Assembly (NCBI GenBank): GCA_046539225.1
Contig: JBKHHG010000003.1
Location: 1 to 40,273, forward strand
Length of the DNA: 40,273 nucleotides
Source of the DNA: Candidatus Nanohaloarchaea archaeon
GTDB taxonomy: Archaea; Nanohalarchaeota; Nanosalinia; Nanosalinales; Nanosalinaceae
Direction of reading: 5' to 3'
Positions 22,620-30,535 of this stretch are shown here, piece by piece. The position numbers were made by a program, and so were the translations under genes. The notes below the pieces were generated by a model. That model saw nothing but the letters and a program-made list of their open reading frames with translations. It did no database searches and was not told the DNA's origin. Every line of letters begins with the position of its first letter. Position 1 is the stretch's first letter.

Positions 22620-23684
22620 ATGCCTGAAGAAACTGAAAACGTTCCCAGACGCCAGATAGACGAATACGACATCCCAGACGACTGGAAAGAAGAAAAGGAA
22701 AGCAAAGAAGAACCAGAACCGGAAGAAGGAGAAGAAGGATACGAAGTAGTACAGGAAGAAGCCGAAAAAGGCGACACAGTACTAACCTGTCCCGAATGTA
22801 ACTCCCAGCGCTTCGAAGAAGACTCCGCCAAAGGAGAACTCATCTGCATAGAATGTGGATTCGTAATGGACGAAGACAGGATCGACGAATCCGCAGAATG
22901 GAGAGCCTTCAACGCAGAAGAAAAAGAAAAGAAAGCCCGCGCCGGACAACCACTGACATACACAAAACACGACATGGGAGTCAGCACCGAAATCGGAAAA
23001 GGCTCAGGAGAACTCTACAAAGTCTCAGGCAACAAAAGAGCACAGTACTACCGACTCAGAAAATGGCACAAACGCCTGACCAAATCCAAAGACAGGAACC
23101 TCGGATTCGCTCTATCAGAGCTCAACTCAATGATTTCAAATCTGAATCTGCCTGAGTCAGTCCATGAAGAAACCGCAAGACTATACGAAAAAGCCGTCGA
23201 CCAAGGCCTTGTCAGAGGACGATCAATGGAGTCAATCATCTCCGCCCTGATCTACATCGTCGCAAGAAAACAGGGAACACCAAGAACGCTCGACGAAATA
23301 AGCGACTCCTCAGGAATCGAAAAACGAGAGATAGGAAGAGCATACAGATACGTAGCAAGAGAGTTAGGCCTCAGAATCCTGCCCGCAAAACCACAGGACT
23401 ACGTACCAAGATTCGCCGGAAAACTCCAACTAAGTGGAGAAGTCCAAGCCAGAGCACGAAACATCCTCAAAGAAGCACGAGAACGAGACCTACTCTCCGG
23501 AAAAGGACCAACAGGCCTCGCAGCCGCAGCACTCTACATCGCAGCAGTCCTCGAAGGAGAAAAACGCACACAGAGAGAAGTAGCAGACGTAGTAGGAGTA
23601 ACAGAAGTCACAATCAGAAACCGCTACAAAGAACTCGCAGAAAAGTTAGGCCTCGAAGACGAACTCGAAGAAAAATCCAACTGA
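22620..23684 (+). CDS. tfb: Transcription initiation factor IIB with acidic N-terminal extension
   Basis: CPEC...CIECG zinc ribbon, EWRAF B-reader, two cyclin repeats, VTEVTIRNRYKEL. Confidence 0.97.
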   Translation: MPEETENVPRRQIDEYDIPDDWKEEKESKEEPEPEEGEEGYEVVQEEAEKGDTVLTCPECNSQRFEEDSAKGELICIECGFVMDEDRIDESAEWRAFNAEEKEKKARAGQPLTYTKHDMGVSTEIGKGSGELYKVSGNKRAQYYRLRKWHKRLTKSKDRNLGFALSELNSMISNLNLPESVHEETARLYEKAVDQGLVRGRSMESIISALIYIVARKQGTPRTLDEISDSSGIEKREIGRAYRYVARELGLRILPAKPQDYVPRFAGKLQLSGEVQARARNILKEARERDLLSGKGPTGLAAAALYIAAVLEGEKRTQREVADVVGVTEVTIRNRYKELAEKLGLEDELEEKSN

Positions 23685-23694
23685 ACTGGTTAAC

Positions 23695-23786
23695 GCATCT
23701 TTCCGTAACGGAAAGCATGCTGAAAGCAGACTTTTTCTAAAATCTGCGACGCTCGGTTCACACGCAAGGAGGCCTTAACAGGCCTC
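23695..23786. other. Three tandem hairpins between convergent tfb and trm1
   Basis: GCATCTTTCCG-TAA-CGGAAAGCATGC (23695-23720), GCAGA...TCTGC (23726-23747) and GAGGCCT-TAAC-AGGCCTC (23769-23786). Confidence 0.55.
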
Positions 23787-23810
23787 TAATACCCAGACTA
23801 GAAACTGAAT

Positions 23811-24890
23811 CTACATCATAAATTCCAAGATATCTTCAAGAGGCGCATCGGTTCTTATTCCTGTAGGCCCGAAATGCGTTCTTGACACGGGATATCCTTT
23901 CTCCTTTAAGGCCTCTATTACTTTGTCTCTTTTCGGCACCGGTACGTCGTGTCGAGAAGCCAGTTCGTGGAGGTCGTAGAACGGCGTTAAGATTTCCGAT
24001 TCTGCGTGGACTTTTTCCAGTATCTTTTTTGAGGCCTCCCATTCTTCAGAGATGTTTTCCAGCATTTTTTCTGTGAATCGTGAGTCGGCGATTTTTCCGG
24101 TCCAGAGCGGGCCTGCATACTCTACTTCTCCGCCGCAGTAACCGCATTTTTCTACTCTTTGTAATTTTCTCCATCCACACTTATCGCAGTAGGAGAGGTA
24201 TCCTATGTTTTCCAGGGCTTTGTTGGTTCTTTTTTTGGATTCTGTTACTCTTCCCATGATGCGTGTGTAGTGTTTGTGCTGATAGCAGAACTTTGGCTCG
24301 AAGGCCTTATCATACCGCGCAAAGTTCTGGAAGGCCTCTTTGATGTAGATGCGTAATGCGGTTTCGTGCATGAAACTGTTTTTCAATGGTTTTGAGCTGT
24401 ATCTTCTTTCACATACTTTTGGATAGCTTCCGGTTGGTGCGGAGTTGTCCGTCGCAGTCAAACCGACAAAAGAGTTGTAGTTCGCGGATCTCGCGGTTGA
24501 GTCCAGGAAAGGTGTGAACGGTCCGTAGGGATCGATGTCGATGAAATGGAAGTATCCTGGCTTTTCTGAGAGGAAGACGTTTGCATCTTTGTTCTCGACT
24601 GAGGCCTCGACACTGTTTTCTTTCAAGGCCTTTTCCGCGGCTTCTACAGCGTTAGGGTTGGCGTCGTTCAGGTAGACTTCTCCTAATTCGGAGTAGCGGA
24701 GGCCTCTGATTCCTGTACCGGTTAGCGGGTCGGCGATGTTCGGATCTTCTATATCAACGTGTTGGAGAAAGGTTTTCGCGGCTACAAAGGATAGGTCCCG
24801 GTTTTCAAGCATTTCCGGGTTGTAGAAGACCTCGTCGTCTTTCCTGGGATCTCCGCTCGGTGCAAAAATCTTGAGACCTCTTTCTTCCAT
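23811..24890 (-). CDS. trm1: tRNA (guanine26-N2)-dimethyltransferase
   Basis: VFYNP....NRD, GTGIRGLRY, DIDPYG, GPLW.G and SRTHF...GIRTDA. Confidence 0.95.
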   Translation of the reverse strand: MEERGLKIFAPSGDPRKDDEVFYNPEMLENRDLSFVAAKTFLQHVDIEDPNIADPLTGTGIRGLRYSELGEVYLNDANPNAVEAAEKALKENSVEASVENKDANVFLSEKPGYFHFIDIDPYGPFTPFLDSTARSANYNSFVGLTATDNSAPTGSYPKVCERRYSSKPLKNSFMHETALRIYIKEAFQNFARYDKAFEPKFCYQHKHYTRIMGRVTESKKRTNKALENIGYLSYCDKCGWRKLQRVEKCGYCGGEVEYAGPLWTGKIADSRFTEKMLENISEEWEASKKILEKVHAESEILTPFYDLHELASRHDVPVPKRDKVIEALKEKGYPVSRTHFGPTGIRTDAPLEDILEFMM

Positions 24891-24975
24891 ACCTTTGTTT
24901 GGGATCTGAATTTTTTATGCTGTATCTTATTCGAGCGATAGTCAACTTTTTTAAAAAGGGCCTTGAACGCCGGTA

Positions 24976-25041
24976 GCCTCTGAGAACCGGGATAAAGCCT
25001 TGAGTTTCTTGATGGATTGTTTTGAGCGGGAGTTAGGGTGA
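24976..25041 (+). pseudogene. atpH: Probable 3' remnant of A-type ATP synthase subunit H
   Basis: ASENRDKALSFLMDCFERELG* directly before the atpI fragment; in-frame TGA at 24964 and no start upstream of the fragment. Confidence 0.45.
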
Positions 25042-25045
25042 TTGT

Positions 25046-25180
25046 CTTATCAGAGCAGAGGAGATGAGGAAGGTATCTGTTACAGGTCCGAGAACCAGGC
25101 TTGAAGAGGTTTTGGAAGCGGTTCACGATCTCGGGCTTATGGATCTGGAGGAGTACAGCGGCGAGATAGAGACGGGTCAA
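25046..25180 (+). pseudogene. atpI: 5' remnant of A-type ATP synthase subunit I
   Basis: LIRAEEMRKVSVTGPRTRLEEVLEAVHDLGLMDLEEY resembles the archaeal AtpI N-terminus; this frame stops at 25226-25228. Confidence 0.8.
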
Positions 25181-25310
25181 CGCCCTGGAACACAAGATCA
25201 TCCCCGAACTGGAGCAAGGCCTCGATAAAGTAACGCAGATGCTGGAAGAAAGAGAAAGAGAGGAAACCTTCCGCATGAAGAAGATCAAAGAGATGCAGGA
25301 AGAAACATAG
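25170..25310 (+). pseudogene. atpD: 3' remnant of A-type ATP synthase subunit D
   Basis: [46 protein letters not shown], preceded by in-frame TAG at 25167. Confidence 0.9.
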
Positions 25311-25330
25311 ACATTATTCAAATTAACCGG

Positions 25331-25711
25331 TCATAGGCCTCTAACCTTCTCCTCTATCTCTTTAAAGGCCTCTTCAGGCTCTTTACCGGGATGTATCGGG
25401 TCTTCAACTTTCCAGACCTCCACTTTATCGGGATCAACATTGAAGTTTCTCTTGATGTACTCGCTGTGTCTTGGCATCATGCAGACCACTTTGTCCGCCT
25501 CGTCTATGGCTCGCTGAGAGATCTGATCGGGATCCGGCTTTACATACTTGAGCGCCTCCCTTTTCTTCAACCAGTCTCGGGCGGCCGGGGACACAAAATC
25601 TACTGCAGAAACCCCGGCGGACTCTACCTCCATGTCATGGTGCTTCCTTGTCAAGGCCTCTGCCACCGGACTCCTGAAAGAGTTCCCGGTGCAGATGTAG
25701 AGTATTCTCAC
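25331..25711 (-). CDS. Low-molecular-weight phosphatase / ArsC-type arsenate reductase family
   Basis: CTGNSFRS P-loop, SAG and W.VEDP. Confidence 0.88.
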   Translation of the reverse strand: MRILYICTGNSFRSPVAEALTRKHHDMEVESAGVSAVDFVSPAARDWLKKREALKYVKPDPDQISQRAIDEADKVVCMMPRHSEYIKRNFNVDPDKVEVWKVEDPIHPGKEPEEAFKEIEEKVRGL

Positions 25712-25828
25712 GTCTATATTTTTCCCAGAGGCCGACTTTAACTTTACCCTCCTTTTTTTGGAACAGCGGCCCTGAAAATTTTTTTCCGAAGAGTAACAAA
25801 TTTAACTTTTGATCTGGAAAAGGCTTTC

Positions 25829-26170
25829 ATGGACTACTTACAGGAGGCCTATCACCCCGACTTTGAAGCAGGGAGGGTTACACCAACCGCTGAAAGAGTT
25901 AGAGCGCTTTTAGGCGAGGCAGAAAAGATTGACGTATTTCATCGAGAAGCTGGCGTGCCCTTAACCGGGAGAGAGAAACAGGCAGAAGGCCTCAATACAA
26001 CGGAAGCGTTCAACAAGGCTTTAAGATTCGGGGGCGACCGTTACATCGCAGTCCGGAACGAATCAGGAGAGCTTGAAGGCCTCCAGATCTATGAAAATAA
26101 TAGAGAAGGTCTCAGAGGATTTTTATTGCCTACGAGAGGCGATGAACTGATTTTCGAGTACCGAGAGTGA
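25829..26170 (+). CDS. Hypothetical protein
   Basis: 113 aa ORF filling the gap; its stop abuts the next gene's stop. Confidence 0.6.
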   Translation: MDYLQEAYHPDFEAGRVTPTAERVRALLGEAEKIDVFHREAGVPLTGREKQAEGLNTTEAFNKALRFGGDRYIAVRNESGELEGLQIYENNREGLRGFLLPTRGDELIFEYRE

Positions 26171-27388
26171 CTACTTTTCTTCCTCCTCTTCAGTATCTGC
26201 GTCCTTGGCATCAGGCATCTTCCGGTCTCCGGCTCCCTGAGCGACTTCTGATGGATCGACGTCTGGCGCCATATCCTCTGCTTCTTCCTCTTTGAGGTCC
26301 TCGCCTACTTCCGACACGAATTCCCGGGAGCTGTTTTTGAGTTCGTATAGCTCTTTCTCGTTGATCTCGCCAAGCTGTTTCTCCTGGACTTTTTCGATTA
26401 TTGAGTCCCATTTTTCGAACATTTCAACGTGTTCGTCGTCAACGTTTAGGTTCTCCTCGACTACACCCGGCAGATCTTCCTTTTCTTCCGGCGGCTCAAC
26501 TCCCTGCGATTTAAGCATGGCGATGTTGGCCTTGAGGAAGTTCCTGTAGTCCTCAACAAGATTCTGAACCTTCTTTCTGACCCCCATCTCGGAGACAAGC
26601 TTGTGCATTCTCCTGATAAAGTCATCCGTCTTTTCAAGGTGTTCATCGACTTCTTCTCCTGTTACCTCTTCAGGATTCTTCTCTCCCTTATCTCCAAATT
26701 CGTAGATGTCACGGGCCTTGTCGGCGTACTCCTGTTCAAGCATATCTTCTTCGACGAACATGTCCTCAAGCACATCCGGAACATCTTCCTTGGCAGGAGG
26801 GTTTTTGCCGGCGAGCATGATCGGGGCCTGTCCTGCCGAAGCCATCGCCTGTTCAAGTTTATGAGGCGCCGAGGACTTCACCGTCTGCTCAGCTTTCTTG
26901 TATCCAGCGGCTCCGACTTTAAGCCTCTTCCTGACGGACTCCTGAGTTCCTGAGATCTTTCCTCTCTCGAGAAGCCGCTTCGCAGGCATGAATACACCGG
27001 TGTCGTAGACAGCTTCTCCGTTCCTCACTGCTTCGATGGCGAGAGGTTCGCCCTTTCTCAGCGAGTCCCAGAACTCTGTCAGGAACGGGAAGTACTGGAT
27101 CGTGATCCTGTCATCGGTCTCTTTCGCAAGCTGTGTAACCTTCTTCTGTATCTTTTTCTTTGCGTCGTCCGGAACGTCTCTCTGCAGCTTTGTATCGTCT
27201 AGGACAACCAGAGTATCGATATCGGATTCATGGCCGTGCTCTCCTTTTGCAACGCTCCCCCAAACTGCGACAACCATCACCTTGTCACCAAGCTTTTCAT
27301 TGAGTTTGTCGGAGAACTCTTGAGCGGCCTCCATCCTCCTCTCTTTCGACTTCTCTCTCATATCCTTCAGCTTGTCTTTAGAACTCAT
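26171..27388 (-). CDS. Pol-beta-type nucleotidyltransferase fused to two HEPN-like helical repeats
   Basis: WGSVAKGE....SDIDTLVVLDD motif; repeated G..PP.(E)KED.P.V.E segments. Confidence 0.8.
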   Translation of the reverse strand: MSSKDKLKDMREKSKERRMEAAQEFSDKLNEKLGDKVMVVAVWGSVAKGEHGHESDIDTLVVLDDTKLQRDVPDDAKKKIQKKVTQLAKETDDRITIQYFPFLTEFWDSLRKGEPLAIEAVRNGEAVYDTGVFMPAKRLLERGKISGTQESVRKRLKVGAAGYKKAEQTVKSSAPHKLEQAMASAGQAPIMLAGKNPPAKEDVPDVLEDMFVEEDMLEQEYADKARDIYEFGDKGEKNPEEVTGEEVDEHLEKTDDFIRRMHKLVSEMGVRKKVQNLVEDYRNFLKANIAMLKSQGVEPPEEKEDLPGVVEENLNVDDEHVEMFEKWDSIIEKVQEKQLGEINEKELYELKNSSREFVSEVGEDLKEEEAEDMAPDVDPSEVAQGAGDRKMPDAKDADTEEEEEK

Positions 27389-27451
27389 CAGGCCTCACAT
27401 CTAAACTTTAGCGGGACAGACTTAAAAACTTTCCCACATATTTGTCACTGT

Positions 27452-27910
27452 ATGGTAAGTAATGATATCCTGGAGTATGTGGAAGCAGAACTCGGACGCA
27501 GCACACACCCACACCTTGAGGATATGAACGATGAAGAGGCCTCAGACTTCTTCGAAAAATTCGCGTACGAGACAGGCCTCAACAACTTTTCAGCCGTTAT
27601 ACTACACACAGAGGAACAGGACGGGTACGACCTGATGGAAAAAACAGCTTTACACCTCCAGTCTAAAGGAGAAAGGCCTCAGTACTTTATACCAGAAAAG
27701 TTCCAGGACCGGGTAAAAAACTCTGAAGTTATAGATGAACAGTGGGTAGAGTACCTGAAAGAGAGAACTGTGGAGGAAGATCTTACCCAGACATACAGCG
27801 AGTTTAACGGCTCAGGAAGAATCCAGATCACGGAGGAAGAATCTGCCGCAGAGACAGAACAGGTAAGCTCCGGGTGCGATCTTGAGGACTACGTAATACT
27901 CTCTGAATAA
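27452..27910 (+). CDS. Acidic hypothetical protein (start at ATG 27452)
   Basis: 152 aa, very acidic; TTAAAAA box about 25 nt upstream. Confidence 0.65.
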   Translation: MVSNDILEYVEAELGRSTHPHLEDMNDEEASDFFEKFAYETGLNNFSAVILHTEEQDGYDLMEKTALHLQSKGERPQYFIPEKFQDRVKNSEVIDEQWVEYLKERTVEEDLTQTYSEFNGSGRIQITEEESAAETEQVSSGCDLEDYVILSE

Positions 27911-27913
27911 GCT

Positions 27914-30535
27914 TCAACGGTACTCTTCGCCCGGGAACTCTCTCTGCTTTCCTCGATCCAGTGCCGCGGAACTTGTCCACGTGTATTCAAACTCTGAGGC
28001 CTCCAGAAGGCCTTTAAGCGGGTCAAAGGCGTGTTCCTCGATCTTCGCCCACTCCCGGCTGTAATGAGGCCTGTCCATCCGGAAGAAACGCGCTATCAAG
28101 GCCTCTTCCTCGTCTTCAAAGTTTTTGCCCGGATCCACTCTTGAGGGATCGACTTTCTCCGGTTCTATTCCCATTTCGATCATGTTCATCGACAGCTTGG
28201 CTTTCTGGACTGTTCCTGTCTGATCTCCCCCGATCTCGTACATCACGGAGGCGCGTTCGTCTGACTGTGCGAAACCGGCTTTCACCATGTCGTGAAGCCA
28301 GGTGTAGAGCTGTTTGTCTCCAAAGCGGAAAGGCCCGTGTAAATGACCGGTTCCCTGCGTCGTTTCCTGCCCGGGTTTTGTCAGGTGGTACATCCTGACT
28401 ATTCCTGCGAGAGGCCTCTCTTTCTCGGCTTTCACGTCCCATTCGGACTCCGCAAGTTTCTCCTGCTGTTCGATAAGCTCCTCCATCTCCCTCCATGGAT
28501 CTGTGCCGAAGCTTGAAGTATGCTCAAGGTCTATAGTGAACTTCATCGGCGCTCCGTAAAGCTCATCGTTTATAGTCTCCAGCTGGCGTCTCGAGGTGAT
28601 GTTAACTGCGTGGCACGCCGCCACGATATGCTTGGGCTTCCAGAGCTTGAACTCCTGCTGGGGCGATCCCTGCATAGCCTCCATATTGACACCTATACCG
28701 TAACGGTTCATCCACTCCACCCATGTACAGCGATCGTAATCCTTCTCGATATACTGGTTGCCATCCATCTGGAACTTCGACTCTCTCTGTGTGAAATGCC
28801 CCCATACGTAGAGCGCGGCAGAGGCCGCGGCGACATCCCTCTGAAAATCCTGGTTGTTCTCAAGCATCTCAAAGTAGTCCTCTCCAAACTCGAAGTCCCA
28901 GTTATCTTCTACAACAGTCTCCCAGATAAATTCCGGGGCGCTGTAAGGCCTGTGAACCACTTCACCGTCTACAAGCCATTTATTATCGGCGTTAGCCATC
29001 CAGGCCGGCAGGATCTCGTAGAAAATCACGGACTCCATTCTCAACGCCCTCTCAAACCTCTGGCTTTCAAGCACTCTCCTCAGGAGATCGGCGTGAAGCT
29101 CCTCATAGTTTTTACGATCCCGGTCCTCGAAAAAGTCTTTATCACCGGCGAAAACCTTTGAAGCCGCGCTGTCAAGATCGAGATCGTAGCCGTTGACATT
29201 GTACTTCTCGCCTTCAGTCCCTATCTCATAGGCAAGCTCTATAACCCTGAGCTGCTGGACCTCAAGCCTTCTCTGGAGGCCTTGCATCTTTCCATCGATA
29301 GAGATATGCGCGTCCTCAACATCATCGTAGAGACTGTCTTCATGGCTTGGAGGCTTCCAGAGCTTGTCAAAGGCCTTTTTCAGGGCTTCCCTTATTACAT
29401 CCACGGCGTTATCCTCTGCAAACATTACCTGGAACTGTTCTTCATCCAGATCCCTCAGGAACCTGTTCAGCAGCCTGAACTCAGAGATAGGCCTTTCCTG
29501 CGCCAGAGCCTCATCGAAATCCGCCAGCGTCTCTATCTCCCTGGATTCCACCTGATCCGCCTCCTCATAAATTTCTCTTGCCCGGCCCTCAAGCTCATCA
29601 GGGTCACCCACACCTGCCTGTTCAAGAATATGCTGCCGCACCACCTCTCCGCTCTGCATCTCAAGATGCGGGTCCAGCTCCTGCTGTTCGACAATACTGT
29701 ACCAGCTGTTATCCACGGCCTTGTCCGTCATTGAAACGGTCTGCGCCATCGAAAGCTGGGCCTCAAGTATGTCCTCGATGCGGCCGAACTTCTGGATCTC
29801 CTCGCTGTAGATCCTCCAGCAGGCCTCATGTCGGGCTTTCTTCCAGATCCTGTCAAAGCCGTCGCTGTAGGAGGCGAACACCGAGTACTGTTCAAACGGG
29901 AAACGGGCCTCACGCCTGTAAAAAGTGTAGTAAAAGTCCTCAAGGAAATCTTTATTCCTGAAAATGTTTGCCTTCCGTTTATTTCTCTCATCCATCATGT
30001 TCTGCGTCAGATCATCGATTGGAATACCAAAGGGATCGACTGAAACATCCTGCGCCATTCTCTCCTCCAGAGCCGGGATTTCATCAGTGGAAACATGCGG
30101 ATTAATCCTGGAGATATTAAAGCTCAGGCCTCGAGCCTTTTTCTCCTCTTTAAAAGACGCGAACTCCTGAAGATACGATGTAAAGTACTGGTGCGTCGGG
30201 TTGAATCCTCTACCCTGTCCTGTCCTGTACGCAGAAGTATAGCCCACGTTAGGATCGCTGTGGAAGGACACGTCAAGGCCTAACTGCTCTATAACGTTGT
30301 AAAGAGGTTCACGGTCGAGATGGAAGCTTGAAGGATTCTCAACCTGGATCTCCATCTCGCCCCCTCCTCTCTGCGCGGTTCTGCCGACTCTCTCCGCCAG
30401 GGCCGATGGAATATCGTTGGTGACGTCCATTCCCGAGGTATTGCCGACCTTGTAGTTCAGACGGGATAGATCAGCCTCTCGGTCCTCCAGGCCTCCGTTC
30501 TTTTTCATCCTCTTCAGCAGGTATTTTAAAGCCAT
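27914..30535 (-). CDS. Large protein with xylose-isomerase/AP-endonuclease-2-like TIM-barrel motifs and a long insertion
   Basis: Ordered motifs MEIQ, SFHSDP, NPHVS ... NMEAM, TIDLEH, MYHLT, GHLHGP and MYEIG. Confidence 0.65.
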   Translation of the reverse strand: MALKYLLKRMKKNGGLEDREADLSRLNYKVGNTSGMDVTNDIPSALAERVGRTAQRGGGEMEIQVENPSSFHLDREPLYNVIEQLGLDVSFHSDPNVGYTSAYRTGQGRGFNPTHQYFTSYLQEFASFKEEKKARGLSFNISRINPHVSTDEIPALEERMAQDVSVDPFGIPIDDLTQNMMDERNKRKANIFRNKDFLEDFYYTFYRREARFPFEQYSVFASYSDGFDRIWKKARHEACWRIYSEEIQKFGRIEDILEAQLSMAQTVSMTDKAVDNSWYSIVEQQELDPHLEMQSGEVVRQHILEQAGVGDPDELEGRAREIYEEADQVESREIETLADFDEALAQERPISEFRLLNRFLRDLDEEQFQVMFAEDNAVDVIREALKKAFDKLWKPPSHEDSLYDDVEDAHISIDGKMQGLQRRLEVQQLRVIELAYEIGTEGEKYNVNGYDLDLDSAASKVFAGDKDFFEDRDRKNYEELHADLLRRVLESQRFERALRMESVIFYEILPAWMANADNKWLVDGEVVHRPYSAPEFIWETVVEDNWDFEFGEDYFEMLENNQDFQRDVAAASAALYVWGHFTQRESKFQMDGNQYIEKDYDRCTWVEWMNRYGIGVNMEAMQGSPQQEFKLWKPKHIVAACHAVNITSRRQLETINDELYGAPMKFTIDLEHTSSFGTDPWREMEELIEQQEKLAESEWDVKAEKERPLAGIVRMYHLTKPGQETTQGTGHLHGPFRFGDKQLYTWLHDMVKAGFAQSDERASVMYEIGGDQTGTVQKAKLSMNMIEMGIEPEKVDPSRVDPGKNFEDEEEALIARFFRMDRPHYSREWAKIEEHAFDPLKGLLEASEFEYTWTSSAALDRGKQREFPGEEYR

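Follow-up and report, generated by a model that had tools for sequence, protein, structure and literature searches.

Deletion scar of an A-type ATP synthase operon beside trm1 in a nanohaloarchaeal species

What does the apparently intergenic DNA beside trm1 encode in a nanohaloarchaeal genome, and does it record the loss of an enzyme? The window that we analysed (40,273 nucleotides) is the whole of contig C3 of the genome bin G000, which holds 606,781 nt in 38 contigs and is 82.27% complete and 0.15% contaminated. As judged from protein similarity, its closest relatives are Nanohaloarchaea: its Trm1 is 85% and 76% identical to those of four Nanohaloarchaea records, and 85% identical to the Trm1 of both G001 and G004. 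On the left, the locus is bounded by an intact trm1 gene for tRNA N2,N2-dimethylguanosine methyltransferase (23811..24890, minus strand; PF02005, E 9e-96), which in this family is divergent from the atp operon, in an arrangement that is the same in the relatives. On the right stands a low-molecular-weight phosphatase/arsenate-reductase-family gene (25331-25711, minus strand). Together with a 113-aa gene that belongs to no Pfam family and has no match in the relatives compared, it fills a variable slot behind atpD (25331-26170), which is followed by a nucleotidyltransferase-domain gene (26171..27388, minus strand; PF01909), by synteny the conserved right flank of the operon in the family. A 179-aa minus-strand ORF (24782-25321) without Pfam family was taken as a shadow frame.

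The 335 bp adjoining trm1 hold pieces of three genes: 21 codons from the end of atpH, ~43 from the start of atpI and 46 from the end of atpD. Translation recovered, on the plus strand, the three peptides that the earlier note had described, as well as the +1 shift between atpI' and atpD' and the junction letters (25168-25176). The third fragment, atpD' (subunit D, final 46 codons and stop; 25170..25310), lies in the +1 frame relative to atpI' and has no start of its own. It matches positions 156-196 of Pfam PF01813 (ATP-synt_D) above the cut-off (E 5e-15); tblastn places residues 164-208 of congener AtpD at 25170-25304, and AtpD' is 86-89% identical to residues 164-205/208 of AtpD in three congeners. 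The N-terminal fragment of subunit I, atpI' (25049..25177, plus strand), with its conserved Met at 25064, escapes Pfam V_ATPase_I and is detected only by congener proteins, residues 1-38 of congener AtpI matching 25064-25177 with 50-62% identity (tblastn, E 5e-10 to 3e-7). Pfam also misses AtpH' (A-type ATPase subunit H, final 21 codons and stop; 24976..25041, plus strand). Here the tblastn match is weak by itself (AtpH residues 85-106 at 24976-25038, 14/22 residues; E 0.039 and 0.25 with two congeners, none with a third), and the fragment is identified because of its position, which coincides exactly with the atpH end when the DNA is aligned with that of four congeners. The window allele of atpH' lacks one Phe codon that a second allele has, as a 3-nt insertion behind 25032 (run X2, described below). 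What remains open is a 59-codon chimeric frame (25049..25228, plus strand), made of the AtpI N-terminus and 16 out-of-frame codons, whose Met-started part belongs to no Pfam family; with the TATA-like box of the operon gone, this frame is probably silent. Pfam, congener tblastn, DNA alignment and the operons of relatives bear out the proposed identity of the fragments and their order H-I...D, and we read the stretch as the remnant of an archaeal A-type ATP synthase operon.

If an operon was deleted here, relatives might be expected to carry it next to trm1, and they do. In the regions of 12 relatives, trm1 is followed, divergently, by atpH-I-K-E-C-F-A-B-D, complete in 8 and cut by a contig end in 4; behind the operon come a few variable genes and then the nucleotidyltransferase gene that also flanks the scar. 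At least part of the operon is visible in 48 of the 49 other family genomes, with AtpD in 44 (and in 23/23 near-complete ones) and AtpA/B in 45. Six genomes have a miss, and in five of these (G002, G006, G013, G027, G068) contigs end inside the operon. Among 32 trm1 loci in JGI metagenomes, atpI lies upstream in 23, the upstream DNA is absent in 7 and 2 are distant homologues; none of the 32 shows the scar. The intact operons vary in several ways. Two close relatives (loci L246 and L247; Trm1 82-84%) have ~390 nt more than the others between trm1 and atpH. The operon of G003 (L064, C22), itself intact, contains an unrelated 183-aa frame between atpA and atpB, and in G020 a frame of 114 aa separates atpB from atpD. 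The atpA frame of G016 (L073, C1) extends over 1,107 aa, against ~576 in relatives, and probably bears an intein. In family f3 (L240-L242) the nucleotidyltransferase gene directly precedes trm1, and so the atp operon may have been moved in between these two genes in the ancestor of the present family.

The start of atpI deserves a comment of its own. A [KR]-P-x-x stretch ahead of its Met is conserved in all 29 intact relatives (L033-L061). The codon ahead of this stretch is an Ile codon (AUH) in 22 of them, behind a ribosome-binding-like motif, and in 14 of those 22 an in-frame stop lies upstream, the interval from there containing neither AUG nor GUG nor UUG (counted by eye); in family f3 the stretch begins with Met. 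A non-AUG start of atpI is probable in this family (window 25049-25066), the start of atpI' itself probably being the Ile codon at 25049. No paper in the literature searched treats such a start by title.

How was the operon removed? The earlier note had proposed a single deletion. Its large atpI-atpD deletion stands, but the distance data and the alignment call for at least two deletions; ~7.8 kb is missing in total and no complete subunit is left. Firstly, between trm1 and atpI, a deletion whose join lies approximately at 24965..24976 (plus strand) cost ~295-300 nt, and with them the operon's TATA-like box together with the start and ~84 codons of atpH. From the trm1 start to the conserved Met of atpI there are 173 nt in the window, where four congeners have 468-473 nt and 29 relatives 444-509 nt, and the TATA-like box that lies beyond +40 in 28 of the 29 relatives is absent here; hence ~300 nt are gone. 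Because it is conserved, the lost box was probably the operon promoter. Another T/A-rich box has been retained (24948..24955) at an offset of 57-63 nt from the trm1 start that is the same in four congeners, and this one is probably the TATA box of trm1. A promoter scan with a sigma-70 model found nothing. Secondly, a larger deletion (join at 25168..25176, plus strand) connects atpI codon ~43 to atpD codon 164 out of frame. Its size is 7,507 nt when measured against G001, 7,523 against G004 and 8,070 against G003. The microhomology suspected at this junction was found: AGAGAC (25168-25173), 6 nt and up to 9 nt if wobble bases matched, is present at both breakpoints in G001, five of its six letters on both sides in G004, and less in G003, and random breakpoint pairs in these operons share at least 6 nt with a probability of about 0.003. 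If two wobble bases agreed in the ancestral copies, either gene can account for all nine junction letters of the window. A supposed sign of decay, the out-of-frame TTG at 25042, had to be given up as a decayed atpI start: the atpH-atpI spacer varies (8 nt in G001, 6 in G004, 7 in the window), intact relatives have no TTG start there, and one of the X2 alleles lacks that TTG.

We consider it likely that the scar marks a real and recent loss, fixed in the sampled population, of the single A-type ATP synthase operon of one nanohaloarchaeal species. The strongest of the competing explanations accepts the scar and holds that the function was kept, the genome having an intact operon (moved, duplicated or acquired) outside its assembled part. 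In favour of this, G000 is 82% complete and other essential genes are missing from the assembly, the operon of family f3 is located elsewhere than beside trm1, and ATP synthase gene transfer to nanohaloarchaea is argued for in passages of 10.1101/2023.04.11.536006. Against it, no trace of any subunit was found in 607 kb: in line with the loss that the earlier note had proposed, profile and tblastn searches of the 82% complete genome returned no other ATP synthase subunit, with no family match for AtpA/B, I, K or F, no whole gene for A, B, D, I or K (nor for C, E, F or H), and no tblastn match below E 0.02 outside the scar for 27 congener subunit proteins. Moreover, the family offers little precedent for a second copy, a second AtpD match occurring in only 2 of 49 genomes, one of them a 7% contaminated bin and the other a piece at a contig start. 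The atp site itself is closed in the bin. We therefore regard a surviving operon as improbable, and infer the functional loss of the enzyme from a genome that is 82% complete.

Fixation was assessed on four runs of one study (X1-X4) that hold part of the stretch, X1 being possibly the source sample. Contigs, not raw reads, were compared with the window, and contigs hide rare variants. In X1, one independently assembled contig of 10,993 nt (depth 14.6) spans 23000-28000 with 6 differences and no gap. In the second sample, X2, one contig covers 23000-25034, reaching 58 letters past the first join; two alleles cover 25005-25159 at depths of 8.1 and 8.5; and one contig of depth 15.2 covers 25130-28000, starting 38 letters before the second join. 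Both X2 alleles run into this last contig, and therefore both lead through the larger deletion. The X2 contigs that bridge the two deletions have a depth of 15-16, equal to that of the flanks. Neither X3 (share 0.17) nor X4 (share 0.14) covers the join; their loose ends at 25168-25171 belong to contigs that diverge again within 40 nt and were set aside as the intact atpD of other organisms. These data bear on a second alternative, that of a deletion mutant, cheater or transient variant, coexisting with operon-bearing conspecific cells, with no species-wide loss. A rare intact variant could have been dropped from the contigs, the junction is covered by two samples of one study, and its pattern has no match in the JGI metagenome collection. 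However, junction depth equals flank depth in X1 as in X2, no X1 or X2 branch occurs at either join among the 24 of 40 loose ends listed, and the deletion is common to two alleles that differ at 5 sites and by a 3-nt indel. This explanation is more doubtful still than that of a surviving operon.

When did the loss occur? Between the fragments and congeners, synonymous sites are saturated (pS 0.7-1.0) and non-synonymous change is low; for atpD', pN to congeners is 0.054-0.089, against 0.029-0.074 among intact pairs, and there are no stop codons. The fragments were under selection for most of the time since speciation, making the loss recent on that scale, which agrees with the recent event that the earlier note had proposed. 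Decay of atpI' has begun and is at an early stage: 5 of 38 AtpI' residues are private with respect to 29 intact relatives (leave-one-out maximum 4), and Ala stands where Pro is invariant in 29/29 relatives. AtpD' shows no decay, with 2 of 42 residues private (maximum 2 in 23 intact), that is, no excess change. The two X2 alleles differ by 5 substitutions and by the atpH Phe codon (the 3-nt indel), and two of the 5 substitutions change conserved residues, one derived in each allele. Former non-synonymous sites carry 3 changes in 255, compared with 2 in 3,298 in the flanking genes (P 0.003), and this stump rate is close to the synonymous rate of the flanks (1.3%), in a test biased by the assembly, in which dense bubbles survive and isolated ones are popped. 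The N:S ratio of stumps against flanks does not differ significantly (P 0.08-0.20). As to a loss of purifying selection, atpI' and atpH' thus show change, and atpD' no excess. No pseudogene burst was seen: 18 of 412 well-matched proteins, atpD included, are partial or split away from contig ends in a comparison with nearly all of G003, and several of the 18 look, by eye, like insertions in G003 or gene-call edges. Altogether, the loss is recent and apparently fixed, with the stumps probably drifting.

The stumps could instead be kept by selection, as a small chimeric protein, an RNA or a sequence that the neighbours need. AtpD' is indeed nearly unchanged and without X1 or X2 variant among those listed, and a ribosome-binding motif and the open 59-codon frame remain; yet the TATA-like box is lost, atpD' is out of frame without a start, an invariant Pro and an invariant Lys are changed in one or both alleles, a codon deletion is segregating, and the genome G065 has lost the same region without remnant, so that we give this possibility very little weight. 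Least credible of all is an assembly collapse or library chimera: G000 is a short-read metagenome bin and chimeras form at microhomologies, but no assembler works with words nearly as short as the 6-9 nt shared here, the join was recovered at full depth by another assembler and again from another sample, it has another deletion and point decay next to it, and mis-assembly of the junction, which the earlier note had also disfavoured, is unlikely because independent contigs of two samples bridge it at flank depth.

Returning to a real and fixed loss, we can propose a course of events. One deletion, of ~300 nt, took most of atpH including its start, as well as the TATA-like box, and another, of ~7.5 kb, joined atpI to atpD out of frame, the latter perhaps through microhomology-mediated recombination or replication slippage at the 6-9 nt repeat. 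The stumps would no longer be expressed and would now drift neutrally. Substrate-level phosphorylation presumably still supplies the cell with ATP: G000 encodes PGK, enolase, PEP synthase, pyruvate dehydrogenase E1 and an ATP-grasp_5 protein (acetate-CoA ligase type). Pyruvate kinase was not found there; its neighbours are missing too, which indicates an assembly gap, and we did not retain it as a loss. The lost enzyme probably did not supply ATP but spent it on pumping ions, and its role as a pump in nanohaloarchaea is discussed in passages of PMC7443923 and PMC10266531. Being most likely an ATP-consuming pump in a fermentative cell, it would have taken with it the cell's main own means of charging its membrane. 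This task may now fall to the P-type cation ATPase (C10) or the Kef/CPA antiporter pair (C7), both of which remain in G000, or to the host. The P-type ATPase is present in 42 of 49 family genomes and was rejected as a compensating gain. H+-pyrophosphatase was found in none of five genomes (G000 and four congeners), nor was any Complex I/Mrp subunit in the same five, and no ATP/ADP translocase scored above the cut-off in 50 genomes, a weak test in which no control genome was positive.

Rhodopsin is encoded by 4/4 congeners and by 14 of 49 family genomes and was not found in G000. We take the congener rhodopsin to be xenorhodopsin-like. Its loci (L114:9904-10593; L194:6342-7112) lie in neighbourhoods that differ between congeners; in G004 it accompanies a second antiporter pair, and in G000 only a short histone-like frame and a tRNA-like stretch are seen at that site (by eye). 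Since so few family genomes carry rhodopsin, its co-loss with the operon is a weak hint and was not counted as support. Parts of PMC4766312 report V-type ATPases and xenorhodopsins in most soda-lake drafts.

Is this the only such loss? G065, a 75% complete genome of the same family and another genus, has neither a true AtpI nor any match for AtpA/B, D or F. On one of its contigs, the nucleotidyltransferase gene ends ~50 nt before trm1 (C10:3040-3200, L235), at a place where its congeners G022 and G034 hold 9.5 and 8.5 kb including the operon, and no operon remnant is visible. G065 is a candidate for an independent, clean loss at the same site. In sister families, four genomes of 85-93% completeness (G040, G041, G045, G049) likewise have no match for AtpA/B, D or F or for a true AtpI; G038 and G053, of the same genus as G041 and G049, have the operon, which in these families is located elsewhere than beside trm1. 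Tentatively, and with less than even confidence, we suggest that nanohaloarchaea repeatedly lose their only rotary ion pump at the species level (G000, G065, perhaps the sister-family genomes), and that the G000 species lives at saturating salt with no primary H+ or Na+ pump of its own except the P-type ATPase, the host supplying membrane charge or ion balance. If true, this would amount to a paired natural experiment, with and without the enzyme within one genus, on how DPANN archaea give up chemiosmosis.

ATP synthase is known to be missing from many DPANN. Passages of 10.1101/2023.04.11.536006 count 60 of 103 DPANN genomes without it, describe losses common to related lineages and treat the Nanohaloarchaeota as having the enzyme. 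Elsewhere, in sections of PMC13718433, it is given as absent in most Nanobdellales, and, in sections of 10.64898/2026.05.13.725050, as present in 0/54 Pacearchaeales. For nanohaloarchaea, the legend of Fig. 6 in PMC7443923 lists the complex as intact in 13 of 19 genomes and incomplete in the rest. Other DPANN losses are old and traceless, and where a draft genome lacks the enzyme, incompleteness can always be held responsible. In the present genome the site is closed, the breakpoints are readable and close relatives keep the operon; hence the loss becomes datable relative to speciation and its consequences comparable. Two cultivation papers hold, in the passages concerned, that nanohaloarchaea should rely on the enzyme, together with Kef-type antiporters, to maintain membrane potential and regulate pH. 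This reliance becomes testable in a population that lacks the enzyme, at a depth of ~15 in two samples, and the question arises of what charges the membrane instead. We found no paper on a deletion scar or closed-site loss of a nanohaloarchaeal atp operon in the literature searched, which was mostly outside subscription journals; supplementary gene tables could list such an absence.

How does the scar compare with known systems? With the intact nanohaloarchaeal A1AO operon it shares the site between trm1 and the nucleotidyltransferase gene, the gene order and the strand, its fragments being 50-89% identical; it differs in that ~7.8 kb is gone, along with every complete subunit and the TATA-like box. 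In reducing genomes, an operon-deletion scar is left when the two outermost genes are fused by a single large deletion at a short repeat. The present locus resembles such scars in its large deletion, which fuses the end genes of the operon at such a repeat; it differs in that the reading frame is not kept across the fusion, the promoter region went with another deletion, and no pseudogene wave accompanies the scar. The ATP-synthase-less DPANN, as the papers cited above describe them, offer the likeness of a small host-dependent archaeon with no detectable rotary ATPase and with inferred substrate-level phosphorylation. Their losses, in those same accounts, are common to related lineages and read as ancestral, whereas this one is private to one species, in a family that otherwise keeps the operon, and its breakpoints can still be read. 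The partial ATP synthase of Nanoarchaeum equitans, according to portions of PMC6349945 and PMC13718433, is likewise a degenerate A-type ATPase in an ectosymbiont; it keeps several whole subunits, in contrast to the non-functional stumps of only three that remain here. Loss of ATP synthase in DPANN is thus a known kind of event, and a readable species-level case within an operon-keeping family, with a probable second one, is a useful addition to it.
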